From Escherichia coli (GTDB taxonomy: Bacteria; Pseudomonadota; Gammaproteobacteria; Enterobacterales; Enterobacteriaceae), in assembly GCF_003334765.1 (NCBI RefSeq), contig NZ_QOWT01000007.1: 64,000 bases of DNA; one strand, 5' to 3'. The number at the start of each line of letters is the position of its first letter. The stretch's first letter is position 1. The notes under the pieces were generated by a model. That model did not search any database. It was not told the origin of the DNA and saw nothing but the letters and a program-made list of their open reading frames with translations. Shown piece after piece: positions 1 to 52,606 of the stretch. Made by a program: the position numbers and the translations under genes.

Positions 1-273
<273 letters not shown>

Positions 274-294
274 TGGCGCTAACCATGCGAGCGT

Positions 295-392
295 GCCTGA
301 TGCGCTACGCTTATCAGGCCTACGAAAATCTTGCAATGTATTGAATTTTCATGATTTTGTAGGCCGGATAAGGCGTTCACGCCGCATCCGGC
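295..392. repeat. REP/RIP (BIME-like) intergenic element: two inverted REP units flanking an AT-rich core
   Basis: GCCTGATGCGCTACGCTTATCAGGCCTAC ... TTGAATTT ... GTAGGCCGGATAAGGCGTTCACGCCGCATCCGGC; a near-identical architecture recurs at 50402-50480. Confidence 0.55.
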
Positions 393-407
393 AAGAAGCT
401 ATAAGAA

Positions 408-438
408 AAGGGCGGAGATCATCTCCGCCCTTTTTATT
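408..438 (+). terminator. Rho-independent terminator downstream of gyrB
   Basis: GC-rich hairpin GGGCGGAGAT/ATCTCCGCCC followed by TTTTTATTT. Confidence 0.6.
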
Positions 439-512
439 TCTGCAATCCGCAATTATCATCCCGCAAATCTATACTTTTTGGGTCAACACGTAACGCTTTA
501 CAGGTGATTATC

Positions 513-911
513 ATGGGGCTTTTTGATGAAGTTGTCGGTGCCTTTCTGAAAGGCGATGCGGGGAAATATCAGGCTATTTTAAGTTGGGTTGAGGAGCAGG
601 GCGGCATTCAGGTGCTGCTGGAAAAACTGCAAAGTGGCGGCTTAGGGGCCATTCTCTCAACCTGGCTGAGTAATCAACAGGGCAATCAATCGGTTAGTGG
701 CGAGCAACTGGAATCGGCGCTCGGCACAAATGCGGTGTCCGATCTCGGGCAAAAACTTGGCGTGGATACCAGTACAGCTTCCATTTTACTGGCAGAACAA
801 TTGCCGAAGATTATTGATGCGCTCTCACCGCAAGGTGAAGTGTCACCACAAGCCAATAACGATCTGCTTTCCGCAGGCATGGAACTGCTGAAAGGGAAAC
901 TCTTCCGCTAA
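513..911 (+). CDS. yidB: DUF937 family protein YidB
   Basis: ORF 504..911; internal ATG at 513 gives 132 aa starting MGLFDEVVGAF, matching remembered YidB; the track start at 504 is GTG. Confidence 0.85.
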   Translation: MGLFDEVVGAFLKGDAGKYQAILSWVEEQGGIQVLLEKLQSGGLGAILSTWLSNQQGNQSVSGEQLESALGTNAVSDLGQKLGVDTSTASILLAEQLPKIIDALSPQGEVSPQANNDLLSAGMELLKGKLFR

Positions 912-1025
912 GCAAAAAGGGAGCACGCAACGCGCGTTGCATCCCCCTTTTCCCTCGGGTGTTGTACTGATTTTTGAGCGGAATCGCGTTAGCATGGGTC
1001 AGGAACCAATCTACCTGGGGAACTC

Positions 1026-1838
1026 ATGGCTATTAAACTCATTGCTATCGATATGGATGGCACCCTTCTGCTGCCCGATCACACCATTTCACCCGCCGTT
1101 AAAAATGCGATTGCCGCAGCTCGCGCCCGTGGCGTGAATGTCGTGCTAACGACGGGTCGCCCGTATGCAGGTGTGCACAACTACCTGAAAGAGCTGCATA
1201 TGGAACAGCCGGGCGACTACTGCATTACTTATAACGGCGCGCTGGTACAGAAGGCCGCTGATGGTAGCACCGTGGCGCAAACTGCTCTCAGCTATGACGA
1301 CTATCGTTTCCTGGAAAAACTCTCTCGCGAAGTCGGTTCTCATTTCCACGCCCTGGACCGCACCACGCTGTACACCGCCAACCGTGATATCAGCTACTAC
1401 ACGGTGCATGAATCCTTCGTTGCCACCATTCCGCTGGTGTTCTGCGAAGCGGAGAAAATGGACCCCAATACCCAGTTCCTGAAAGTGATGATGATTGATG
1501 AACCCGCCATCCTCGACCAGGCTATCGCGCGTATTCCGCAGGAAGTGAAAGAGAAATATACCGTGCTGAAAAGTGCGCCGTACTTCCTCGAAATCCTCGA
1601 TAAACGCGTTAACAAAGGTACGGGGGTGAAATCACTGGCCGACGTGTTAGGTATTAAACCGGAAGAAATCATGGCGATTGGCGATCAGGAAAACGATATC
1701 GCAATGATTGAATATGCAGGCGTCGGTGTGGCGATGGATAACGCTATTCCTTCAGTGAAAGAAGTGGCGAACTTTGTCACCAAATCTAACCTTGAAGATG
1801 GCGTGGCGTTTGCTATTGAGAAGTATGTGCTGAATTAA
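1026..1838 (+). CDS. yidA: HAD-superfamily (Cof-type) sugar phosphatase YidA
   Basis: 270-aa ORF with HAD motif I DMDGTLL near the N-terminus and a Cof-like C-terminal motif GDQENDIAM. Confidence 0.9.
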   Translation: MAIKLIAIDMDGTLLLPDHTISPAVKNAIAAARARGVNVVLTTGRPYAGVHNYLKELHMEQPGDYCITYNGALVQKAADGSTVAQTALSYDDYRFLEKLSREVGSHFHALDRTTLYTANRDISYYTVHESFVATIPLVFCEAEKMDPNTQFLKVMMIDEPAILDQAIARIPQEVKEKYTVLKSAPYFLEILDKRVNKGTGVKSLADVLGIKPEEIMAIGDQENDIAMIEYAGVGVAMDNAIPSVKEVANFVTKSNLEDGVAFAIEKYVLN

Positions 1839-1844
1839 TCTGTG

Positions 1845-1876
1845 GGCGGGCAAACAGCATAAACGCGTTTGCCCGC
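1845..1876. terminator. Bidirectional hairpin between convergent yidA and yidX
   Basis: GGGCGGGCAAAC ... GTTTGCCCGC inverted repeat in the 45-bp gap between the two stop codons. Confidence 0.5.
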
Positions 1877-1883
1877 TTACTGA

Positions 1884-2540
1884 TTATTGGTTTACTGCAT
1901 ATACAACCAGAAATTGCAGCGGTGCAGTAATGATGTCCAGCGTAACAGTCACTGGCAGTAATGCTGCGGAAACACCATCCGGAATGCCTCTGGGTGAATA
2001 GTATTCATAAAATCGCACTTTAAATGGATGGTAGAACGCCATCACCTTTGAGTAATCCATGTTTTTATTTTTCTCATGGATTGTGCCTTTTAGGTTTTCC
2101 AGTGACCTGGTACAGTGTTGAACACCACAGGCAAAACCATAATGCGTTGCCAGTGCCTTTTCTTCTTCGTTATTCCAGTAGTAGTAAAGCGATATTGTGC
2201 CGGTAAATTTCTTTTTCCCCGCATTTAAAACAAATCTTGCGTCATCGGCAACCTGAATATTGTGCCGGTTAAGTGCTGGATCATTGAGCATCTTAACGAT
2301 GTCATCGGCACCATCAGTGATAAGGTAATCCAGCGATTCCCCTACAAAAACATAGCCTTTTGTTCCATTACTATCTTTTGCCTGCGATAGCCCAGTGATG
2401 GTGTCTGACTGCGATTGATACTTTCCTGAACTACCCTTTGCGGTATGGGAAACCAGAGCATACGAGATACAGCCTGAAAGCATCAGCGCCAGTGGGAATA
2501 AACCGGCAGCCTTAAAAAATCCCTTAAAATTCAACTTCAT
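1884..2540 (-). CDS. yidX: Lipoprotein YidX
   Basis: Start moved to the internal ATG giving [24 protein letters not shown] (signal peptide plus lipobox LSGC); 218 aa. Confidence 0.75.
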
Positions 2541-2677
2541 GATTAATCCTTTAAACGAGTAGCTAAGCCGTTGAAAGCATACTCTTCTTTCCCTCCTGTT
2601 TAGCGCCTGATATCCCTTTTCAGATTTCTGCCCGACGCATGTCATTTTTTTATGCATTGTTCTTTTTGTGATCTAAA

Positions 2678-2753
2678 TTGTAGTACAACAATATAAGTTT
2701 GTACTACATTACACGCACGGCAAACGCGAACGTCATCACGCTGGTACTACAAA
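2678..2753. promoter_or_regulatory. Three GTA(G/C)TACA palindromic repeats in the dgo promoter region; candidate DgoR (GntR-family) operators
   Basis: TTGTAGTACAACA (2678-2690), TTTGTACTACATT (2698-2710) and CTGGTACTACAAA (2741-2753), 65-140 bp upstream of the dgoR start. Confidence 0.5.
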
Positions 2754-2817
2754 GTTGCCGCGTTATGCATCGATCGGGGTAAAGTAGAGAAGAACATACA
2801 GAGCACAAGGACTCTCC

Positions 2818-3507
2818 ATGACTCTCAATAAAACCGATCGCATTGTCATTACGCTGGGTAAACAGATCGTTCACGGCAAATACGTGCCAGGCTCGCCGCT
2901 TCCGGCTGAGGCGGAACTCTGTGAGGAGTTTGCAACCTCGCGCAACATCATCCGTGAGGTGTTCCGTTCGCTGATGGCGAAGCGGCTGATTGAAATGAAA
3001 CGTTATCGCGGGGCGTTTGTGGCACCGCGTAACCAGTGGAATTACCTCGACACTGACGTACTGCAATGGGTGCTGGAAAATGACTACGACCCACGGCTTA
3101 TCAGTGCCATGAGCGAAGTGCGAAATCTGGTGGAACCGGCGATTGCCCGTTGGGCAGCAGAGCGCGCGACTTCCAGCGATCTGGCGCAGATTGAATCGGC
3201 GCTGAACGAGATGATTGCCAACAATCAGGACCGCGAAGCGTTTAACGAAGCGGATATTCGCTACCACGAGGCGGTGCTGCAGTCGGTGCATAACCCGGTG
3301 TTACAGCAACTTAGCATTGCGATCAGTTCGCTGCAGCGGGCGGTTTTTGAACGAACCTGGATGGGCGATGAGGCCAACATGCCGCAAACGCTCCAGGAAC
3401 ATAAGGCGCTGTTCGATGCGATACGACATCAGGACGGCGATGCGGCAGAGCAGGCGGCGCTTACCATGATCGCCAGCTCGACACGAAGGTTAAAGGAAAT
3501 CACATGA
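2818..3507 (+). CDS. dgoR: GntR/FadR-family transcriptional repressor of the D-galactonate operon
   Basis: 229-aa ORF with an N-terminal winged-HTH and FadR-like C-domain; first gene of the dgoRKADT cluster. Confidence 0.9.
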   Translation: MTLNKTDRIVITLGKQIVHGKYVPGSPLPAEAELCEEFATSRNIIREVFRSLMAKRLIEMKRYRGAFVAPRNQWNYLDTDVLQWVLENDYDPRLISAMSEVRNLVEPAIARWAAERATSSDLAQIESALNEMIANNQDREAFNEADIRYHEAVLQSVHNPVLQQLSIAISSLQRAVFERTWMGDEANMPQTLQEHKALFDAIRHQDGDAAEQAALTMIASSTRRLKEIT

Positions 3508-4382
3508 CAGCTCGCTACATCGCAATTGACTGGGGATCGACCAATCTGCGCGCCTGGCTTTATCAGGGCGACCACTGCCTGGAGAGCAGGCAATCAGAAG
3601 CAGGCGTCACGCGCCTGAACGGAAAATCTCCGGCTGCGGTGTTAGCAGAAGTCACGACCGACTGGCGTGAAGAGAAAACGCCAGTGGTAATGGCAGGAAT
3701 GGTTGGCAGCAACGTCGGCTGGAAAGTTGCACCGTATTTATCTGTTCCTGCCTGTTTTTCGTCTATTGGCGAACAATTAACGTCAGTTGGCGACAATATC
3801 TGGATTATTCCCGGATTATGTGTCTCTCATGACGATAACCACAATGTGATGCGCGGCGAAGAAACACAATTGATCGGCGCGCGAGCTCTGGCTCCTTCCT
3901 CTCTTTATGTCATGCCCGGAACCCATTGCAAATGGGTGCAGGCCGATAGCCAGCAAATCAACGATTTTCGCACCGTGATGACCGGTGAATTACATCATTT
4001 ACTGTTAAATCACTCATTGATTGGCGCAGGTTTGCCGCCGCAGGAAAACTCTGCCGATGCCTTCACAGCTGGCCTTGAGCGTGGTCTTAATACGCCCGCC
4101 ATATTGCCGCAGCTTTTTGAAGTTCGCGCCTCGCATGTGCTGGGAACACTTCCCCGCGAACAGGTCAGCGAATTTCTCTCTGGTTTGTTGATTGGCGCAG
4201 AGGTCGCCAGTATGCGCGACTATGTGGCCCATCAACACGCCATCACCCTTGTCGCCGGAACATCGCTGACCGCGCGCTACCAGCAAGCCTTTCAGGCGAT
4301 GGGTTGCGACGTGACGGCGGTGGCGGGCGACACGGCATTTCAGGCTGGTATAAGGAGCATCGCTCATGCAGTGGCAAACTAA
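3504..4382 (+). CDS. dgoK: 2-dehydro-3-deoxygalactonokinase
   Basis: 292-aa ORF; start overlaps the dgoR stop (ATGA); position and sequence match DgoK. Confidence 0.9.
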   Translation: MTARYIAIDWGSTNLRAWLYQGDHCLESRQSEAGVTRLNGKSPAAVLAEVTTDWREEKTPVVMAGMVGSNVGWKVAPYLSVPACFSSIGEQLTSVGDNIWIIPGLCVSHDDNHNVMRGEETQLIGARALAPSSLYVMPGTHCKWVQADSQQINDFRTVMTGELHHLLLNHSLIGAGLPPQENSADAFTAGLERGLNTPAILPQLFEVRASHVLGTLPREQVSEFLSGLLIGAEVASMRDYVAHQHAITLVAGTSLTARYQQAFQAMGCDVTAVAGDTAFQAGIRSIAHAVAN

Positions 4383-10459: not shown

Positions 10460-10555
10460 GTAGCCGATGAGGACGCGCCTGATGGGTGTTCTGGCTACCT
10501 GACCTGTCCATTGTGGAAGGTCTTACATTCTCGCTGATTTCAGGAGCTATTGATT
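10460..10555 (+). promoter_or_regulatory. ibpA 5' UTR (ROSE-like RNA thermometer region)
   Basis: About 95-nt leader between the sigma-32 promoter and the ibpA ATG, ending in SD AGGAGC; ibpA is a described RNA-thermometer-controlled gene. Confidence 0.45.
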
Positions 10556-10969
10556 ATGCGTAACTTTGATTTATCCCCGCTTTACCGTTCTGCTATTGGA
10601 TTTGACCGTTTGTTTAACCACTTAGAAAACAACCAGAGCCAGAGTAATGGCGGCTACCCTCCGTATAACGTTGAACTGGTAGACGAAAACCATTACCGCA
10701 TTGCTATCGCTGTGGCTGGTTTTGCTGAGAGCGAACTGGAAATTACCGCCCAGGATAATCTGCTGGTGGTGAAAGGTGCTCACGCCGACGAACAAAAAGA
10801 GCGCACCTATCTGTACCAGGGCATCGCTGAACGCAACTTTGAACGCAAATTCCAGTTAGCTGAGAACATTCATGTTCGTGGTGCTAACCTGGTAAATGGT
10901 TTGCTGTATATCGATCTCGAACGCGTGATTCCGGAAGCGAAAAAACCGCGCCGTATCGAAATCAACTAA
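10556..10969 (+). CDS. ibpA: Small heat shock protein IbpA
   Basis: 137 aa starting [24 protein letters not shown]; alpha-crystallin domain; the track start at 10550 is TTG. Confidence 0.95.
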
Positions 10970-11080
10970 TTCCCTAAGGCCGCCTGGCGCGGCCTGACAT
11001 CTCCATGCTCGCCGTCAGGGAGCATATGCGAATCTTCGGATTTGCAGGTACTTACTCGCTTCTTAGAAGGAGAAATGACT

Positions 11081-11509
11081 ATGCGTAACTTCGATTTATC
11101 CCCACTGATGCGTCAATGGATCGGTTTTGACAAACTGGCCAACGCACTGCAAAACGCCGGTGAAAGCCAGAGCTTCCCGCCGTACAACATTGAGAAAAGC
11201 GACGATAACCACTACCGCATTACCCTTGCGCTGGCAGGTTTCCGTCAGGAAGATTTAGAGATTCAACTGGAAGGTACGCGCCTGAGCGTAAAAGGCACGC
11301 CGGAGCAGCCAAAAGAAGAGAAAAAATGGCTGCATCAAGGGCTTATGAATCAGCCATTTAGCCTGAGCTTTACGCTGGCTGAAAATATGGAAGTCTCTGG
11401 CGCAACCTTCGTAAACGGTTTACTGCATATTGATTTAATTCGTAATGAGCCTGAACCCATCGCAGCGCAGCGTATCGCTATCAGCGAACGTCCCGCGTTA
11501 AATAGCTAA
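11081..11509 (+). CDS. ibpB: Small heat shock protein IbpB
   Basis: 142 aa from the ATG at 11081 ([24 protein letters not shown]); paralog of IbpA. Confidence 0.9.
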
Positions 11510-17861: not shown

Positions 17862-19814
17862 ATGAATTCGTTACAAATCTTGAGTTTTGTCGGTTTTACG
17901 CTGCTGGTGGCGGTGATCACCTGGTGGAAGGTCCGCAAAACAGATACCGGATCGCAACAAGGCTATTTTCTTGCCGGACGTTCACTAAAAGCGCCGGTTA
18001 TTGCCGCTTCGTTAATGCTAACCAACCTTTCCACGGAACAACTGGTCGGCCTTTCCGGGCAGGCCTACAAAAGCGGCATGTCGGTGATGGGCTGGGAAGT
18101 GACTTCAGCGGTGACGCTGATCTTCCTCGCGCTAATCTTTTTACCGCGCTATCTGAAGCGCGGCATTGCCACCATCCCCGATTTTCTGGAGGAACGTTAT
18201 GATAAAACGACGCGTATTATCATCGACTTCTGCTTCCTAATTGCCACCGGCGTCTGCTTTCTGCCGATTGTTCTCTACTCCGGCGCGTTGGCGCTCAACA
18301 GCCTGTTTCACGTCGGGGAATCGCTACAGATTTCTCACGGTGCGGCTATCTGGCTACTGGTAATTTTGCTTGGTCTGGCGGGAATTTTGTATGCGGTGAT
18401 CGGCGGACTGCGCGCAATGGCAGTGGCGGACTCCATCAACGGTATTGGGCTGGTTATCGGCGGGTTGATGGTGCCGGTATTTGGCCTGATCGCGATGGGC
18501 AAGGGCAGCTTTATGCAGGGCATTGAGCAACTCACCACCGTTCACGCCGAGAAATTAAACTCAATCGGTGGCCCGACCGATCCCTTGCCGATTGGCGCGG
18601 CATTTACCGGTTTGATTCTGGTGAACACCTTTTACTGGTGTACAAATCAGGGCATCGTGCAACGCACGCTGGCGTCAAAAAGCCTGGCGGAAGGGCAAAA
18701 GGGGGCGCTGTTAACGGCGGTGCTGAAAATGCTCGACCCGCTGGTACTGGTGCTGCCAGGGTTGATTGCGTTTCATCTGTATCAGGATTTACCGAAAGCC
18801 GACATGGCCTACCCGACGCTGGTCAATAACGTTCTGCCAGTGCCAATGGTGGGTTTCTTCGGCGCGGTGTTATTTGGTGCGGTGATCAGTACCTTCAACG
18901 GCTTTCTGAATAGCGCCAGTACGTTATTCAGTATGGGTATTTACCGTCGCATCATTAACCAGAATGCCGAGCCGCAGCAGCTGGTCACCGTCGGGCGCAA
19001 ATTTGGTTTCTTTATCGCTATCGTTTCGGTGCTGGTCGCGCCGTGGATCGCCAACGCGCCGCAGGGGCTGTATAGCTGGATGAAACAGCTCAACGGCATT
19101 TACAACGTGCCGCTGGTTACCATCATCATTATGGGCTTTTTCTTCCCGCGCATCCCGGCGCTGGCGGCAAAAGTAGCGATGGGGATTGGCATAATCAGCT
19201 ACATCACCATCAACTATCTGGTGAAGTTCGACTTCCATTTCCTCTATGTGCTGGCCTGTACGTTCTGCATCAACGTGGTCGTGATGCTGGTGATCGGTTT
19301 TATCAAACCGCGCGCCACGCCGTTCACCTTCAAAGATGCGTTTGCGGTGGACATGAAACCGTGGAAAAACGTCAAGATCGCGTCAATTGGCATCCTGTTC
19401 GCGATGATTGGCGTCTATGCCGGGCTGGCTGAATTCGGCGGCTACGGTACGCGCTGGTTAGCGATGATCAGTTATTTCATTGCCGCCGTAGTGATTGTCT
19501 ACCTGATTTTTGACAGCTGGCGGCGGAAGGTATTCGCTTTAATTCCGCCTACACCTGTTCACCGGTTTGTACGCCTGCACGGGCCGGACTATTTACCGGT
19601 ATCTACGCTAACCAGTCCGGCCCGTGGACCAACAACGTCGCGCCAGGCAAAAACATCTCCACTATGGGGCGCTACTTTAAGGATGCCGGCTATCACACCT
19701 GTTACATCGGCAAATGGCATCTCGACGGTCATGACTATTTCGGCACTGGCGAGTGTCCGCCGGAGTGGGACGCTGATTACTGGTTCGATGGGGCGAACTA
19801 TCTTAGCGAACTGA
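17862..19814 (+). CDS. yidK: SSS-family Na+/solute symporter YidK with an aberrant 3' end (reads out of frame into sulfatase DNA)
   Basis: Multi-TM transporter sequence to about codon 550 (...AAVVIVYLIFDSW), then about 100 codons of Pro/Arg/Ser/Thr-rich sequence overlapping the sulfatase gene in another frame; native end probably lost. Confidence 0.7.
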   Translation: MNSLQILSFVGFTLLVAVITWWKVRKTDTGSQQGYFLAGRSLKAPVIAASLMLTNLSTEQLVGLSGQAYKSGMSVMGWEVTSAVTLIFLALIFLPRYLKRGIATIPDFLEERYDKTTRIIIDFCFLIATGVCFLPIVLYSGALALNSLFHVGESLQISHGAAIWLLVILLGLAGILYAVIGGLRAMAVADSINGIGLVIGGLMVPVFGLIAMGKGSFMQGIEQLTTVHAEKLNSIGGPTDPLPIGAAFTGLILVNTFYWCTNQGIVQRTLASKSLAEGQKGALLTAVLKMLDPLVLVLPGLIAFHLYQDLPKADMAYPTLVNNVLPVPMVGFFGAVLFGAVISTFNGFLNSASTLFSMGIYRRIINQNAEPQQLVTVGRKFGFFIAIVSVLVAPWIANAPQGLYSWMKQLNGIYNVPLVTIIIMGFFFPRIPALAAKVAMGIGIISYITINYLVKFDFHFLYVLACTFCINVVVMLVIGFIKPRATPFTFKDAFAVDMKPWKNVKIASIGILFAMIGVYAGLAEFGGYGTRWLAMISYFIAAVVIVYLIFDSWRRKVFALIPPTPVHRFVRLHGPDYLPVSTLTSPARGPTTSRQAKTSPLWGATLRMPAITPVTSANGISTVMTISALASVRRSGTLITGSMGRTILAN

Positions 19815-23897: not shown

Positions 23898-24063
23898 TAT
23901 CACGGATGCTTTTATAAAAATAATTAGAATAAGTCACTACGCATTCCCATAAATGCGGGAGAGGAATCTATCACATTGATGAATGTTAGCCAGATATACG
24001 CCAGGAATGGGGAATTGTTTAGCGGCAGAATATGTAAACAAAAGCGGCAATAAATGTTGCCGG

Positions 24064-24101
24064 GAGAGATGGTAGGGCGGATAAGATGCGTCAGCATCGC
24101 A
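24064..24101. repeat. REP element
   Basis: GTAGGGCGGATAAGATGCGTCAGCATCGCATCCGACAC, a REP-type imperfect palindrome. Confidence 0.4.
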
Positions 24102-24127
24102 TCCGACACCAACCCGCACGCTAAATA

Positions 24128-24157
24128 TAAAAGGGGAGCGGTTTCCCGCTCCCCTTT
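24128..24157 (-). terminator. Rho-independent terminator downstream of tisB
   Basis: On the minus strand, GGGGAGCGG ... CCGCTCCCC hairpin followed by TTTTATATTT. Confidence 0.55.
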
Positions 24158-24176
24158 GGTGCGACTTGAATCTGAA

Positions 24177-24518: not shown

Positions 24519-24591
24519 TAATATTTGGACAAAACGCAAACTGTGATCGATACTCAACTATGCACTAAATACGTCAAAATTCGTGCCGAAA

Positions 24592-24620
24592 TTGCGCGTT
24601 CTGCGCGGAACACGTATACT
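24592..24620 (+). promoter_or_regulatory. Candidate sigma-70 promoter of IstR-1
   Basis: TTGCGC (24592-97), 17-bp spacer, TATACT (24615-20), placing the start near 24627. Confidence 0.4.
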
Positions 24621-24626
24621 TTCAGT

Positions 24627-24701
24627 GTTGACATAATACAGTGTGCTTTGCGGTTACCAGCCGCAGGCGACTGACGAAACCTCGCTCCGGCGGGGTTTTT
24701 T
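24627..24701 (+). ncRNA. istR: IstR-1 antitoxin sRNA (about 75 nt)
   Basis: Starts GTTGACATAATACAGTGTGCT, a 20/21 direct-repeat copy of 24369-24389 in the tisAB leader (so antisense to the divergent transcript); ends in hairpin CCTCGCTCCGGCGGGG plus TTTTTT. Confidence 0.55.
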
Positions 24702-25034: not shown

Positions 25035-26723
25035 ATGGCAAGTTCGGGCACAACATCGACGCGTAAGCGCTTTACCGGCGCAGAATTTATCGTTCATTTC
25101 CTGGAACAGCAGGGCATTAAGATTGTGACAGGCATTCCGGGCGGTTCTATCCTGCCTGTTTACGATGCCTTAAGCCAAAGCACGCAAATCCGCCATATTC
25201 TGGCCCGTCATGAACAGGGCGCGGGCTTTATCGCTCAGGGAATGGCGCGCACCGACGGTAAACCGGCGGTCTGTATGGCCTGTAGCGGACCGGGTGCGAC
25301 TAACCTGGTGACCGCCATTGCCGATGCGCGGCTGGACTCCATCCCGCTGATTTGCATCACTGGTCAGGTTCCCGCCTCGATGATCGGCACCGACGCCTTC
25401 CAGGAAGTGGACACCTACGGCATCTCTATCCCCATCACCAAACACAACTATCTGGTCAGACATATCGAAGAACTCCCGCAGGTCATGAGCGATGCCTTCC
25501 GCATTGCGCAATCAGGCCGCCCAGGCCCGGTGTGGATAGACATTCCTAAGGATGTGCAAACGGCAGTTTTTGAGATTGAAACACAGCCCGCTATGGCAGA
25601 AAAAGCCGCCGCCCCCGCCTTTAGCGAAGAAAGCATTCGTGACGCAGCGGCGATGATTAACGCTGCCAAACGCCCGGTGCTTTATCTGGGCGGCGGTGTG
25701 ATCAATGCGCCCGCACGGGTGCGTGAACTGGCGGAGAAAGCGCAACTGCCTACCACCATGACTTTAATGGCGCTGGGCATGTTGCCAAAAGCGCATCCGT
25801 TGTCGCTGGGTATGCTGGGGATGCACGGCGTGCGCAGCACCAACTATATTTTGCAGGAGGCGGATTTGTTGATAGTGCTCGGTGCGCGTTTTGATGACCG
25901 GGCGATTGGCAAAACCGAGCAGTTCTGTCCGAATGCCAAAATCATTCATGTCGATATCGACCGTGCAGAGCTGGGTAAAATCAAGCAGCCGCACGTGGCG
26001 ATTCAGGCGGATGTTGATGACGTGCTGGCGCAGTTGATCCCGCTGGTGGAAGCGCAACCGCGTGCAGAGTGGCACCAGTTGGTAGCGGATTTGCAGCGTG
26101 AGTTTCCGTGTCCAATCCCGAAAGCGTGCGATCCGTTAAGCCATTACGGCCTGATCAACGCCGTTGCCGCCTGTGTCGATGACAATGCAATTATCACCAC
26201 CGACGTTGGTCAGCATCAGATGTGGACCGCGCAAGCTTATCCGCTCAATCGCCCACGCCAGTGGCTGACCTCCGGTGGGCTGGGCACGATGGGTTTTGGC
26301 CTGCCTGCGGCGATTGGCGCTGCGCTGGCGAACCCGGATCGCAAAGTGTTGTGTTTCTCCGGCGACGGCAGCCTGATGATGAATATTCAGGAGATGGCGA
26401 CCGCCAGTGAAAATCAGCTGGATGTCAAAATCATTCTGATGAACAACGAAGCGCTGGGGCTGGTGCATCAGCAACAGAGTCTGTTCTACGAGCAAGGCGT
26501 TTTTGCCGCCACCTATCCGGGCAAAATCAACTTTATGCAGATTGCCGCCGGATTCGGCCTCGAAACCTGTGATTTGAATAACGAAGCCGATCCGCAGGCT
26601 TCATTGCAGGAAATCATCAATCGCCCTGGCCCGGCGCTGATCCATGTGCGCATTGATGCCGAAGAAAAAGTTTACCCGATGGTGCCGCCAGGTGCGGCGA
26701 ATACTGAAATGGTGGGGGAATAA
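25035..26723 (+). CDS. ilvB: Acetolactate synthase I, large (catalytic) subunit
   Basis: 562-aa ThDP-dependent enzyme; sequence recognised as IlvB. Confidence 0.95.
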   Translation: MASSGTTSTRKRFTGAEFIVHFLEQQGIKIVTGIPGGSILPVYDALSQSTQIRHILARHEQGAGFIAQGMARTDGKPAVCMACSGPGATNLVTAIADARLDSIPLICITGQVPASMIGTDAFQEVDTYGISIPITKHNYLVRHIEELPQVMSDAFRIAQSGRPGPVWIDIPKDVQTAVFEIETQPAMAEKAAAPAFSEESIRDAAAMINAAKRPVLYLGGGVINAPARVRELAEKAQLPTTMTLMALGMLPKAHPLSLGMLGMHGVRSTNYILQEADLLIVLGARFDDRAIGKTEQFCPNAKIIHVDIDRAELGKIKQPHVAIQADVDDVLAQLIPLVEAQPRAEWHQLVADLQREFPCPIPKACDPLSHYGLINAVAACVDDNAIITTDVGQHQMWTAQAYPLNRPRQWLTSGGLGTMGFGLPAAIGAALANPDRKVLCFSGDGSLMMNIQEMATASENQLDVKIILMNNEALGLVHQQQSLFYEQGVFAATYPGKINFMQIAAGFGLETCDLNNEADPQASLQEIINRPGPALIHVRIDAEEKVYPMVPPGAANTEMVGE

Positions 26724-35877: not shown

Positions 35878-35945
35878 CGTCTTATCAGCCTACAGACCGC
35901 GCCTGACCTGTCGGGTGGATAAGACGTTCACGCCGCATCCGGTAA
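35878..35945. repeat. REP element
   Basis: CTTATCAGCCTACAGACC ... GGATAAGACGTTCACGCCGCATCCGG, imperfect REP-type palindromes. Confidence 0.45.
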
Positions 35946-41502: not shown

Positions 41503-41597
41503 TGGCGGAAGATCACAGGAGTCGAACCTGCCCGGGACCGCTGGCGGCCCCAACTGGATTTGAAGTCCAGCCGCCTCACCGGAGACGACGATCTTCC
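41503..41597 (-). tRNA. selC: tRNA-Sec (selenocysteine tRNA, UCA anticodon)
   Basis: Reverse complement is GGAAGATCGTCGTCTCCGGTGAGGCGGCTGGACTTCAAATCCAGTTGGGGCCGCCAGCGGTCCCGGGCAGGTTCGACTCCTGTGATCTTCCGCCA, the 95-nt E. coli selC sequence with the long variable arm. Confidence 0.97.
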
Positions 41598-49153: not shown

Positions 49154-50359
49154 ATGTTTCATCTCGATACTTTAGCAACGCTTGTTGCCGCAACGCTGAC
49201 GTTGCTGCTCGGGCGTAAGTTGGTCCATTCCGTCTCCTTTTTGAAGAAATACACCATACCGGAACCTGTTGCGGGTGGTTTGTTGGTGGCGCTGGCGCTA
49301 CTAGTACTGAAAAAAAGCATGGGCTGGGAAGTCAACTTTGATATGTCCCTGCGCGATCCGTTAATGCTGGCTTTCTTCGCCACCATTGGCCTGAACGCCA
49401 ACATTGCCAGTTTGCGTGCCGGTGGGCGTGTGGTTGGCATCTTCTTGATTGTGGTTGTTGGTCTGTTGGTGATGCAAAATGCCATTGGCATTGGTATGGC
49501 TAGCCTGTTAGGGCTTGATCCGCTGATGGGGCTGTTGGCCGGTTCTATTACGCTTTCCGGCGGTCACGGTACGGGCGCTGCGTGGAGTAAATTGTTCATT
49601 GAACGTTATGGCTTCACCAATGCGACGGAAGTGGCGATGGCCTGTGCAACGTTCGGTCTGGTGCTGGGCGGCTTGATTGGCGGTCCGGTGGCGCGCTATC
49701 TGGTGAAACACTCCACCACGCCGAACGGTATTCCGGATGACCAGGAAGTCCCGACGGCGTTTGAAAAGCCGGATGTGGGCCGCATGATCACCTCGTTGGT
49801 GCTGATTGAAACTATCGCGCTGATTGCTATCTGCCTGACGGTGGGGAAAATTGTTGCGCAACTTTTGGCTGGCACTGCTTTTGAACTGCCGACCTTCGTC
49901 TGTGTACTGTTTGTTGGCGTGATTCTGAGCAACGGTCTGTCAATAATGGGCTTTTACCGCGTCTTTGAGCGTGCGGTATCCGTGCTGGGTAACGTAAGCT
50001 TGTCGTTGTTCCTGGCGATGGCGTTGATGGGGCTGAAACTGTGGGAGCTGGCTTCGCTGGCGCTGCCGATGCTGGCGATTCTGGTGGTACAGACCATCTT
50101 CATGGCGTTGTATGCCATCTTCGTTACCTGGCGCATGATGGGCAAAAACTACGATGCGGCAGTGCTGGCTGCGGGTCACTGTGGTTTTGGCCTCGGTGCA
50201 ACGCCAACGGCAATCGCCAACATGCAGGCGATCACTGAACGCTTTGGCCCGTCGCACATGGCGTTTTTGGTGGTGCCGATGGTCGGTGCGTTCTTTATCG
50301 ATATCGTCAATGCGCTGGTAATTAAGTTGTATTTGATGTTGCCGATTTTTGCCGGTTAA
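49154..50359 (+). CDS. gltS: Sodium/glutamate symporter GltS
   Basis: 401-aa ORF recognised as GltS. Confidence 0.9.
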   Translation: MFHLDTLATLVAATLTLLLGRKLVHSVSFLKKYTIPEPVAGGLLVALALLVLKKSMGWEVNFDMSLRDPLMLAFFATIGLNANIASLRAGGRVVGIFLIVVVGLLVMQNAIGIGMASLLGLDPLMGLLAGSITLSGGHGTGAAWSKLFIERYGFTNATEVAMACATFGLVLGGLIGGPVARYLVKHSTTPNGIPDDQEVPTAFEKPDVGRMITSLVLIETIALIAICLTVGKIVAQLLAGTAFELPTFVCVLFVGVILSNGLSIMGFYRVFERAVSVLGNVSLSLFLAMALMGLKLWELASLALPMLAILVVQTIFMALYAIFVTWRMMGKNYDAAVLAAGHCGFGLGATPTAIANMQAITERFGPSHMAFLVVPMVGAFFIDIVNALVIKLYLMLPIFAG

Positions 50360-50401
50360 CCGATGAAGCGGCGGTAGAAGTGCCGCCGCAACAAAGACAA
50401 A

Positions 50402-50480
50402 TGCCTGATACGCTTCGCTTATCAAGCCTGCGTATTGATTCATAATTTATTGAATTTGTAGGGTGAATCGCATCCGGCAG
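50402..50480. repeat. REP/RIP (BIME-like) element
   Basis: TGCCTGATACGCTTCGCTTATCAAGCCTGCG ... TTGAATTT ... GTAGGGTGAATCGCATCCGGCAG; same family as the element at 295-392. Confidence 0.5.
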
Positions 50481-50524
50481 GAAGGTAGGGTAACCTGAAA
50501 TGGCGGTCTTCTCACTGCCGCCTT

Positions 50525-52606
50525 TTACGCATTCGAGTAACGTTCTGTCTCCGGCATCCAGCGTTCTATCAAGGCTTTTGCCTGTTGTGGGTAACGTTCG
50601 TGAATATGTCGCGCCAGGCGCTGAACTTCCGGGATCATCGCCTGATCGCGCAGTAAATCCGCCACTTTAAATTCAGCATTACCCGTCTGACGCGTGCCTA
50701 ACAATTCGCCAGGGCCGCGAATCTCCAGATCTTTTTGCGCAATCACAAAACCGTCGTTACTGTCGCGCAGCACTTGCAGGCGAATTTGCGCCGTTTTAGA
50801 AAGCGGCGTTTTGTAGAGCAGCACGCAGTGAGAAGCCACCGCGCCACGACCTACGCGCCCGCGCAGCTGGTGTAACTGCGCCAGACCCAGACGCTCAGGG
50901 TTTTCGATAATCATCAGGCTGGCGTTAGGCACATCAACACCGACTTCAATAACGGTAGTGGCAACCAGCAGATGTAGCTCACCTTGTTTAAACGACGCCA
51001 TCACCGCCTGTTTCTCGGCTGGTTTCATCCGCCCGTGTACCAGGCCAACATTCAATTCTGGTAGCGCCAGTTTCAACTCTTCCCAGGTAGCTTCCGCCGC
51101 CTGCGCTTCCAGTAACTCTGACTCTTCAATCAACGTACAAACCCAGTACGCCTGACGACCTTCAGTTATGCAGGCGTGGCGCACGCGGTCAATGATGTCG
51201 GTACGGCGGGTATCAGGAATAGCGACCGTAGTCACTGGCGTGCGGCCTGGCGGCAGCTCATCTATCACCGAGGTATCGAGATCGGCATACGCCGTCATTG
51301 CCAGCGTGCGGGGGATCGGCGTGGCGGTCATGATCAACTGATGCGGATGGAAGCCCTGCTGCTGGCCTTTCTCCCACAATGCCAGACGCTGATGCACGCC
51401 AAAACGATGCTGTTCGTCGATAATCACCAGCGCCAGGCCGTTAAACTGCACCTGTTCCTGGAAGATGGCGTGTGTACCGACAATCATCTGCACCTGACCG
51501 CTGGCGATGGCTTCCTGCTGAGACAGTCGCGCTTTGCCTTTCTGCTTACCGGCGAGCCAGCCCACTTTGATACCGAGCGGTGCAAACCAGTTGCGGAAGT
51601 TATTGGCGTGCTGCTCGGCGAGTAATTCGGTTGGTGCCATCAGTGCCACCTGTTTGCCGTGGGCAATCGCACGCAGCGCGGCGAGGGCGGCGACCAGCGT
51701 TTTACCGGAACCTACATCGCCCTGTACCAGGCGCATCATCGGCACATCCAGCGCCATATCATGCTCGATCTCCGCCACTACGCGTGCCTGTGCGCCCGTT
51801 GGCTTGAACGGTAAGGCGGCGAGGAGTTTATTTTTCAGCGTGTCATTGGCGCTCAGCGGCTGGGCATGAAAACGCTGTGCTCCGGCACGTAAGGCTAACA
51901 TGCTGAGGTTGTGCGCCAGCAGTTCTTCCAGAATCAGACGACGTTGCGCCGGATGCTGCCCGGTTTCCAGATCGCTAAGCTGTAGCGTCGGTGGCGGGCG
52001 GTGCAAAGTGCGCAACGCTTCCGGTAGCGTCATCATTCCTTGTGACAGTTCCGGCGGCAGGAGTTCTTCAATGGCGCAGGTGTCGAGCAGATCCAGCGCC
52101 TGGTCGGTTAATTTACGCAGCGTGGCCTGCTTTACGCCTTCCGTTGTTGGATAAACCGGCGTGAGCGTTTCCTGTAATTCTGGCGTGCTGAGATCGCCCT
52201 GCACGCGGTATTCCGGGTGGATCATCTCCGCACCATATTTACCGCGCTTTGCTTCGCCATAAGCCAGTACACGGCGGCCCGTCGCCAGGCTATTTTTCAT
52301 TGCCGCGCTGAAATTGAAAAAGCGCATGGTGAGGATGCCGGAACCGTCGCTGATCTGGCAGGTCATCATCCGCCGACCGCCGAAGGAGATATTGCAGTTC
52401 AGCACTTCGCCTTCCACCGTGGCATAAACGCCCGGCAGTAGTTCTCCGATGGGGTAGAGATGGGTGCGATCTTCGTAGCGCAGGGGAAGGTGTAAGAGTA
52501 AATCCTGCACGGTATGCAGGTTGATTTTCGCCAGTTTGTTACTAAGCGCTGCGCCAACGCCCGTTAGGGAACTGAGCGGGACAGTATCTAACAGGCGGCC
52601 TTTCAT
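50525..52606 (-). CDS. recG: ATP-dependent DNA helicase RecG
   Basis: 693 aa from MKGRLLDTVPLSSL; DEQH helicase motifs. Confidence 0.95.
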   Translation of the reverse strand: MKGRLLDTVPLSSLTGVGAALSNKLAKINLHTVQDLLLHLPLRYEDRTHLYPIGELLPGVYATVEGEVLNCNISFGGRRMMTCQISDGSGILTMRFFNFSAAMKNSLATGRRVLAYGEAKRGKYGAEMIHPEYRVQGDLSTPELQETLTPVYPTTEGVKQATLRKLTDQALDLLDTCAIEELLPPELSQGMMTLPEALRTLHRPPPTLQLSDLETGQHPAQRRLILEELLAHNLSMLALRAGAQRFHAQPLSANDTLKNKLLAALPFKPTGAQARVVAEIEHDMALDVPMMRLVQGDVGSGKTLVAALAALRAIAHGKQVALMAPTELLAEQHANNFRNWFAPLGIKVGWLAGKQKGKARLSQQEAIASGQVQMIVGTHAIFQEQVQFNGLALVIIDEQHRFGVHQRLALWEKGQQQGFHPHQLIMTATPIPRTLAMTAYADLDTSVIDELPPGRTPVTTVAIPDTRRTDIIDRVRHACITEGRQAYWVCTLIEESELLEAQAAEATWEELKLALPELNVGLVHGRMKPAEKQAVMASFKQGELHLLVATTVIEVGVDVPNASLMIIENPERLGLAQLHQLRGRVGRGAVASHCVLLYKTPLSKTAQIRLQVLRDSNDGFVIAQKDLEIRGPGELLGTRQTGNAEFKVADLLRDQAMIPEVQRLARHIHERYPQQAKALIERWMPETERYSNA

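Follow-up and report, generated by a model that had tools for sequence, protein, structure and literature searches.

Four intergenic segments in a 64,000-nt stretch of Escherichia coli DNA (in the following, the window) raise the question whether they are copies of a single dispersed repeat family and, if so, what kind of element each of them represents. An earlier note on the same DNA had read them as REP/RIP elements (BIMEs), two of them composite and two single. REPs (palindromic units) are short, imperfect palindromes found in intergenic DNA and 3' untranslated regions, where they occur singly or in pairs known as BIMEs. REP elements are defined by the tetranucleotide GTAG located 5' of the foot of a palindrome; they fall into the classes y, z1 and z2, and a BIME-1 combines a z1 and a y unit with the linker L and its IHF site (PMC3333891). 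The long L linker of BIME-1 is well conserved and often carries the IHF site, and the element occurs in single copy (PMC3333891, PMC2817692). In MG1655, 355 REP elements have been annotated, most of which are transcribed (PMC4550694).

Judged from their sequences, the four segments are almost certainly copies of the enterobacterial REP family, among them an intact BIME-1 downstream of gyrB (site A), a decayed BIME-1 downstream of gltS (site B), a solo REP between ysdE and tisB (site C) and a truncated REP pair downstream of yicN (site D). The earlier reading was right in kind, and site A has what defines a BIME-1 at the sequence level. REP/BIME repeats are already a known, catalogued feature of E. 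coli K-12 and the finding is not new; REPs belong to the usual make-up of 3' UTRs and intergenic DNA in E. coli, and the four sites leave this picture unchanged.

Genomic setting

By alignment, the window is the reverse strand of MG1655 from ~3,877,977 down to ~3,813,800 and extends from gyrB to dfp. A megablast search with positions 200-520 found a match in all of the 5426 complete E. coli genomes, and the genes annotated under it are gyrB and yidB. When the MG1655 annotation is mapped onto the window, gyrB ends at 271-273 and gltS at ~50358-50360, so that the gene names given in the earlier note are correct. All four sites are located between coding sequences of the mapped annotation and at gene 3' ends: between gyrB and the yidB gene downstream of it (A), between the convergent pairs gltS/recG (B) and ysdE/tisB (C), and between yicN and the nepI gene downstream of it (D). 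The RefSeq annotation of the corresponding MG1655 region lists no repeat_region features at the sites and no tnpA-REP (RAYT) gene anywhere in that region; the RAYT gene of K-12 is located elsewhere on the chromosome.

Several other features of the window were recorded on the way. Identity to MG1655 is 99.97% in positions 1-32819 and 99.2% beyond (231 mismatches, 8 gaps), and with this step at ~32819 the window resembles a mosaic in which K-12-identical DNA adjoins diverged DNA. A 159-bp deletion relative to MG1655 at 19524/19525, flanked by 8-nt direct repeats (CTGGCGGC), eliminates the stop codon of yidK together with the start of yidJ; the undeleted form is present in 10 of 10 E. coli genomes sampled across the ranking, where it is seen as two-piece matches of ~370 nt. 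Gathering-level Rfam matches are a ROSE_2 thermometer in the ibpA leader (10490-10562, plus strand), istR (24572-24701, plus strand) and tRNA-Sec (41507-41597, minus strand). In addition, a 58-nt direct repeat (10524-10581 and 11049-11106, 74% identical) joins the start regions of ibpA and ibpB.

Membership in the REP family

Local alignment against a null of mononucleotide shuffles of the four segments, as delimited in the earlier note, ties site A to each of the others: the score is 48 for A and B (null 14.4 +/- 2.1; z=16), 48 for A and D (z=15.6) and 24 for A and C (z=5.6). No significant similarity was found by the same alignment between B and C (z=0) or between B and D (z=2.3), so B is connected to C and D only via A and the family models. 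The mutual resemblance of the four segments that the earlier note had put up for checking is hence borne out for every pair that includes A, but not for the two pairs of B with C and D. Searches by blastn-short with the three parts of A gave matches with E<0.01 at the four sites only.

Profile HMMs, one each for the z1, y and long classes, were built from independent metagenomic REP copies. The harvest comprised 232 REP units from the 120 metagenomic enterobacterial loci listed (1.02 Mb), and its units form three main classes, namely 29/30-nt units with T at position 8 (z1), 34/35-nt units with G at position 8 (y) and 36/37-nt units (z2-like); the class lengths and position 8 agree with the E. 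coli classes (PMC3333891). The class HMMs match at exactly the four sites (E from 5e-14 to 5e-7), and REP units are recognisable at B, C and D by models that are independent of the window. Beyond the four sites, none of the three HMMs gave a match with E<0.1 in the 64 kb, indicating that no REP was missed. The y HMM gave one marginal match at 26494-26520 (E=0.14), which by its coordinates falls within ilvB and which we regard as a chance hit.

Simpler patterns perform poorly by comparison. A full-REP pattern of fixed spacing has no match in the window because the REP classes differ in length, and the 14-mer CTTATCMGGCCTAC, with 3 mismatches allowed, is found 11 times where 6.3 are expected, which makes it a poor detector. 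The copy number is high, as for REPs in general: a gyrB-yidB query that contains A matches at 40 or more places per genome in the majority of the 5426 E. coli genomes (4242 records), and the median over the 5426 genomes is likewise at least 40.

An intact BIME-1 downstream of gyrB

Site A occupies 294-393 and is made up of a z1 REP and a y REP on either side of a 35-nt L linker, an arrangement for which BIME-1, RIP and RIB are synonyms. Its parts and the neighbouring terminator are as follows.

294-323, minus strand: z1-type REP, reading TGCCTGATGCGCTACGCTTATCAGGCCTAC on the plus strand, with GTAG on the minus strand
324-358, no strand assigned: L linker, 35 nt, GAAAATCTTGCAATGTATTGAATTTTCATGATTTT, fitting the family consensus ..CTGCAATATATTGAATTTGCACGATTTT
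334-346, minus strand: IHF-consensus-like core, ATTCAATACATTG compared with WATCAANNNNTTR, 1 mismatch
359-393, plus strand: y-type REP, GTAGGCCGGATAAGGCGTTCACGCCGCATCCGGCA
405-440, plus strand: intrinsic terminator of gyrB, GC stem at 410-430 followed by the U-run TTTTTATTT, outside the BIME

The composite with two inverted REPs that had been noted after gyrB is confirmed, but the coordinates given for it (295-392) were one base short at each end. The z1 unit matches its HMM with E=1.4e-11 and folds into a hairpin of -13.2 kcal/mol (z=-4.1); the corresponding values for the y unit are E=4.8e-14 and -20.9 kcal/mol (z=-4.6). In the 65 distinct z1-L-y elements among the matches listed, the most frequent left arm and the most frequent right arm have exactly the sequences of the two arms of A. 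The y unit retains GTAG as well as the AA/GC mismatch inside the stem. In vitro, GTAG and the stem mismatch are needed for binding and cleavage by TnpA-REP (PMC3333891).

The composite as a whole was captured in the pattern GGCCTAC-N(10-22)-ATTGAATTT-N(6-16)-GTAGGCC, for which 0.00 chance occurrences are expected in the window and which is found in at least 120 stretches of metagenome contigs. The matches listed contain 55 distinct linkers, mostly of 34-36 nt, with a conserved TGCAATATATTGAATTTGCA core, and among them TGCAAT(A/G/T)TATTGAATTTGCA is kept beyond the bases that the pattern forces. Against the consensus of the 65 distinct elements listed, the conserved core of the A linker aligns without gaps. 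In MG1655 coordinates, the A linker corresponds to 3,877,620-3,877,654 and the linker of B to ~3,827,363-3,827,388, the latter being approximate owing to indels relative to MG1655. At both A and B the z1-L-y unit is single and non-iterated, with flanks free of tandem copies.

The A linker is a predicted IHF site. Matches to WATCAANNNNTTR with 1 mismatch number 72 in the window compared with 52 expected, which is weak on its own; as such matches are common by chance, IHF binding at A is inferred from family homology: the IHF-like core occupies the same position in all harvested L linkers listed and occurs also in site B. The text of an IHF ChIP-seq study (PMC3333857) mentions neither REPs nor gyrB.

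The stop codon of gyrB is separated from site A by a 20-nt gap, and the gyrB terminator on the other side folds with -23.3 kcal/mol (z=-6.45) into a 14-pair hairpin with nine G-C pairs. From this position between stop codon and terminator, A would be transcribed into the gyrB 3' UTR. A consensus terminator scan called no plus-strand terminator in 200-560; since it missed the obvious terminator of gyrB, its negatives are not to be trusted.

Of the 5426 genomes, 4625 carry site A, and in ~800 genomes 35 nt of unrelated DNA take its place between the gyrB stop codon and the terminator. In strain 2017.17.01CC, an IS200C of 711 nt (L142, 340-1050) is found at the position corresponding to window 438/439, in the T-tract after the gyrB terminator, i.e. 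45 nt downstream of the BIME-1 and outside the REP.

A decayed BIME-1 between gltS and recG

Site B spans 50402-50479 and comprises the following parts.

50402-50431, minus strand: degenerate z1-type REP, TGCCTGATACGCTTCGCTTATCAAGCCTGC, in which CTAC is changed to CTGC
50432-50457, no strand assigned: shortened L-like linker containing TTATTGAATTT, the only core in common with the family of A
50443-50455, minus strand: IHF-like core, ATTCAATAAATTA, 1 mismatch to WATCAANNNNTTR
50458-50479, plus strand: y REP reduced to a stump, GTAGGGTGAATCGCATCCGGCA, by deletion of its interior

Of the two-armed composite that had been described after gltS, the z1 arm and the linker stand, but the y arm exists only as a stump. 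The z1 unit is found by its HMM with E=5.5e-7 (50402-50429, minus strand) and is 89% identical to the z1 unit of A; its hairpin is weak (-6.7 kcal/mol, z=-1.9). The stump joins the GTAGG head (GTAGGGTGAAT) to the last 11 nt (CGCATCCGGCA) without the palindrome interior; the y model sees the last 11 nt only (50467-50479, E=1.9), and folding of the stump yields no REP hairpin (z=-1.65). Of the z1 and y units that make up a BIME-1, site B accordingly has the z1 unit and merely an 11-nt 3' remnant of the y unit. MG1655 carries 3 extra nt inside the stump relative to the window, and in strain AHM8C212RI a longer, more complete linker is followed by the same kind of stump. The mutated z1 unit, the short linker, the stump and the AHM8C212RI allele together identify B as a decaying BIME-1.

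The site is polymorphic: 1872 of 5426 genomes, about a third, carry at least 80% of the query. The gltS-recG spacer measures 166 nt in the window (50361-50526) and 33 nt in NU14, 1532MA and PEC1021, which represent an empty allele. The extra segment of ~133 nt consists of the BIME-1 relic and, on its left side, a second hairpin (50368-50389, -18.7 kcal/mol). A 12-nt direct repeat, TGAAGCGGCGGT and TGAAATGGCGGT, flanks the segment; in the terminator hairpin, this repeat constitutes the left arm. The 7-bp stem of the hairpin at 50368-50389 also occurs in the terminator of the empty allele, and AGAAG is common to the loop of the hairpin and the reverse complement of the loop of that terminator.

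The ~133-nt segment may reflect either an insertion or a deletion between the 12-nt repeats. That B preserves the footprint of a BIME-1 arriving at or leaving a site is an unlikely interpretation. The direct-repeat flanks fit poorly with the mechanism of a Y1 transposase, which to our knowledge makes no target duplication. We know of no demonstration of REP/BIME mobility in vivo in E. coli; should a hairpin-targeted insertion, and not a deletion between the repeats, be true, the thousands of occupied and empty E. coli genomes would constitute a natural experiment on this mobility.

A solo REP and a truncated pair

The two remaining sites had both been described as single REP units, which holds for site C and not for site D. 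Site C and its neighbour are:

24072-24108, plus strand: solo long-type REP, 37 nt, GTAGGGCGGATAAGATGCGTCAGCATCGCATCCGACA
24131-24158, minus strand: terminator of tisB, separate from C

The solo unit is confirmed, but the interval originally given for it (24064-24101) starts 8 nt early and ends 7 nt short. The unit is recognised by the long-class HMM with E=7.3e-10 and forms a hairpin of -20.6 kcal/mol (z=-5.0). It lies between the convergent genes ysdE (stop codon at 24054) and tisB, just past the tisB terminator. A y-like G at position 8 places C in a rare long/G subclass, of which the harvested units listed include 2 distinct copies.

Other genomes differ at this locus. In ~1500 genomes, a 177-nt GC-rich palindromic repeat replaces C with a near-full-length copy; in strain 05-3629 (L143, 192-368) it takes the place of window 24071-24108 and has long inverted arms beginning CCCTCTCCCCAAAGGGGCGAGGGG. 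The element is multi-copy, with a median of 3 and up to 8 places per genome. A search of Rfam with the copy at C gave no match, and we take the element to be possibly a boxC-type repeat. The tisB/istR toxin-antitoxin locus is missing from some strains, among them WGS1363 (L144, 2634-2792), in which it is absent between ysdE and ivbL; the left breakpoint corresponds to window 24063, 8 nt before the REP of C.

Site D, in contrast to the single unit claimed for it, is composed of half a z2-like inverted REP, a 16-nt linker and a y REP:

35878-35893, minus strand: 3' half of a z2-like inverted REP, CGTCTTATCAGCCTAC, with a one-base deletion
35910-35944, plus strand: decayed y-type REP, GTCGGGTGGATAAGACGTTCACGCCGCATCCGGTA, in which GTAG is changed to GTCG

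Site D begins 7 nt downstream of the stop codon of yicN. Its y unit is found by the HMM with E=1.4e-7 (35917-35942, plus strand) and is 86% identical to that of A, with four substitutions. The z2-like half is marginal when taken alone (E=0.32 against a z2 consensus, E=0.6 with positions 1-17 of the long HMM) and is supported by its head-to-head position and by its pairing with the y unit. The y unit alone does not form a stable hairpin (z=-0.4); its head pairs instead with that of the z2-like half, at -24.8 kcal/mol (z=-2.0). The linker is unmatched to the S, l, r and s motifs, the number of short head-to-head linkers in the harvest being too small for a comparison. As strain 2009C-3554 (L145) retains GTAG and AAGG at D, it is the copy of K-12 that has decayed.

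The same strain carries a pair of genes for a RelE/ParE toxin and an HTH antitoxin (L145, 2686-3525) right after the y REP of D. This insertion, which is present in some strains, falls between window 35944 and 35986.

Alternative readings

The Rfam family ES036 (CssrF, RF02751) matches the centre of A at 316-358 on the minus strand with 44.8 bits, above its gathering score of 37.6, which at face value would make the centre of A a genuine minus-strand small RNA with the REPs being incidental. The ES036 consensus is, however, the reverse complement of the BIME-1 linker and the z1 head, and the model scores above gathering at the linkers of 12 of 20 unrelated BIME-1 loci (L037, L044, L049, L053, L062, L063, L072-L075, L095 and L100). 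It is consequently a model of the repeat, and the match confirms A as a BIME-1. The small-RNA reading, furthermore, has to contend with the minus strand being antisense to the gyrB 3' UTR, with a scan of 200-560 that detected no sigma-70-like promoter on either strand, and with the stem of the model, which is short and contains two non-canonical pairs in A; overall, we consider it very unlikely. At B the model reaches 15.8 bits over its positions 11-24 only, below threshold. Our search of the literature on ES036/CssrF found no relevant paper, and annotations that use the model will call an 'sRNA' at many BIME-1 copies. A further Rfam family, naRNA4 (CssrE, RF02564), remains below threshold at 362-436 on the plus strand (47.1 bits, gathering score 59.5). 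It describes an RNA made of a y and a z2 unit from REP325 (PMC4550694).

All four palindromes are located just 3' of stop codons and form hairpins, as they also would if they were mere terminators of gyrB, gltS, yicN and ysdE/tisB that belong to no dispersed family. None of the four, however, is followed by a U-run, and the terminators are found next to them: textbook examples beside A (405-440) and C (24131-24158, minus strand), and beside B a weaker hairpin with a T-run (~50501-50526). Together with the recurrence of the segments across E. coli and metagenomic enterobacterial contigs, including the conserved GTAG, the AA/GC mismatch and the linker, this leaves the terminator reading highly improbable. 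Even less credit is due to a chance resemblance among GC-rich hairpins. The lack of similarity between B and C (z=0) and B and D (z=2.3) and the barely enriched 14-mer CTTATCMGGCCTAC (11 compared with 6.3 expected) are what such a coincidence would produce, but the alignments of A with B and D (z ~16), HMM E-values down to 5e-14 and a composite pattern whose exact form is expected 0.00 times in the window make its probability practically nil, and it was rejected on these three grounds.

Consequences for annotation

The earlier note had blamed the composite elements for spurious ORFs called in the gaps, which is plausible. Over A, a 66-aa ORF (293-493, plus strand) starts in the z1 unit with MPDALRLSGL..., a translation typical of REPs, and 33- and 36-aa ORFs are found on the minus strand. 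The gltS-recG gap over B contains only ORFs of 22 aa or fewer. The ATG of a 167-aa ORF that runs antisense to gltS lies in the linker of B, and the mechanically called nepI ORF extends upstream to a GTG in the y unit of D. The repeats give rise to hairpins, IHF-like sites and spurious ORFs as well as to matches with Rfam 'sRNA' families that derive from repeats. Recognition of REPs and BIMEs is a matter of annotation hygiene, as it stops false calls of genes, small RNAs and terminators in genome scans.

Preservation and proposed roles

The state of preservation differs between the units. A 30-40-nt imperfect palindrome that folds into a hairpin is found for both units of A and for C; the stump of B and the y unit of D on its own form none. 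GTAG is present in both units of A, in C and in the stump of B, and is mutated in the z1 unit of B (CTGC) and in the y unit of D (GTCG). Because B and D have lost GTAG or the stem, they would be decaying remnants, whereas A and C may still be competent substrates of TnpA-REP; on this view, the four sites divide into two putative substrates and two remnants.

REP elements could act at the level of RNA, of double-stranded DNA and of single-stranded DNA. As RNA, the hairpins that A contributes to the gyrB 3' UTR could delay degradation by 3'->5' exonucleases or cause attenuation of transcription. REP hairpins protect the mRNA upstream of them from 3' exonucleases, and translation can be lowered by a REP that follows a stop codon within ~15 nt; the latter rule would hold for yicN with D (7 nt) but not for gyrB with A (20-nt gap). 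In double-stranded DNA, the BIME-1 linker L would be bound by the DNA-bending protein IHF, and the REPs may bind gyrase and Pol I. As single-stranded DNA, GTAG-bearing REP hairpins would be substrates of the Y1 transposase TnpA-REP (RAYT), which may spread and reshuffle REPs. Among the activities invoked here, those involving IHF, gyrase, Pol I and termination are described in PMC2817692, and recognition and cleavage by TnpA-REP in PMC3333891. Variation at REP/BIME loci like that at A-D has been described as well (PMC3333891), and the apparent turnover at the four sites, i.e. presence and absence, replacement and breakpoints, is as would be expected of such elements.

Comparison with known repeats

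Compared with the known BIME-1 (RIP, RIB), site A has an inverse z1 and a y unit whose GTAG/CTAC heads face a 35-nt L linker, and it shares the IHF-type core, the single copy and the location where a transcription unit has its 3' end. There is no difference at the sequence level; the linker reads TTTTCA in place of the majority TTTGCA, a variant that occurs in other copies too. Site B has the same layout in a degraded form: the y arm is not intact, CTAC is mutated and the linker is 7-10 nt shorter than that of the sister allele.

The two small RNA families that overlap A differ from it in distinct ways. A passes the ES036 threshold, but ES036 models a repeat and not a locus-specific gene. In naRNA4, a y REP comparable to 362-393 of A makes up the first hairpin, but the family needs a pair of y and z2, and the alignment at A has to place the second hairpin on the terminator of gyrB.

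Site C has in common with the known solo REPs that it is an imperfect palindrome (37 nt) carrying GTAG at its 5' end, is extragenic and forms a stable hairpin; in length and interior it agrees with the z2 class. It differs by a y-like G instead of T at the diagnostic position 8, and from the two long/G copies harvested by three further mismatches. Site D, finally, resembles BIME-2 and atypical BIMEs in its head-to-head arrangement of a z2-like inverted unit and a y unit across a short linker of 16 nt. BIME-2 elements are usually tandem, whereas D is a single pair with half a z2-like unit and GTAG changed to GTCG, and it therefore falls outside BIME-2.
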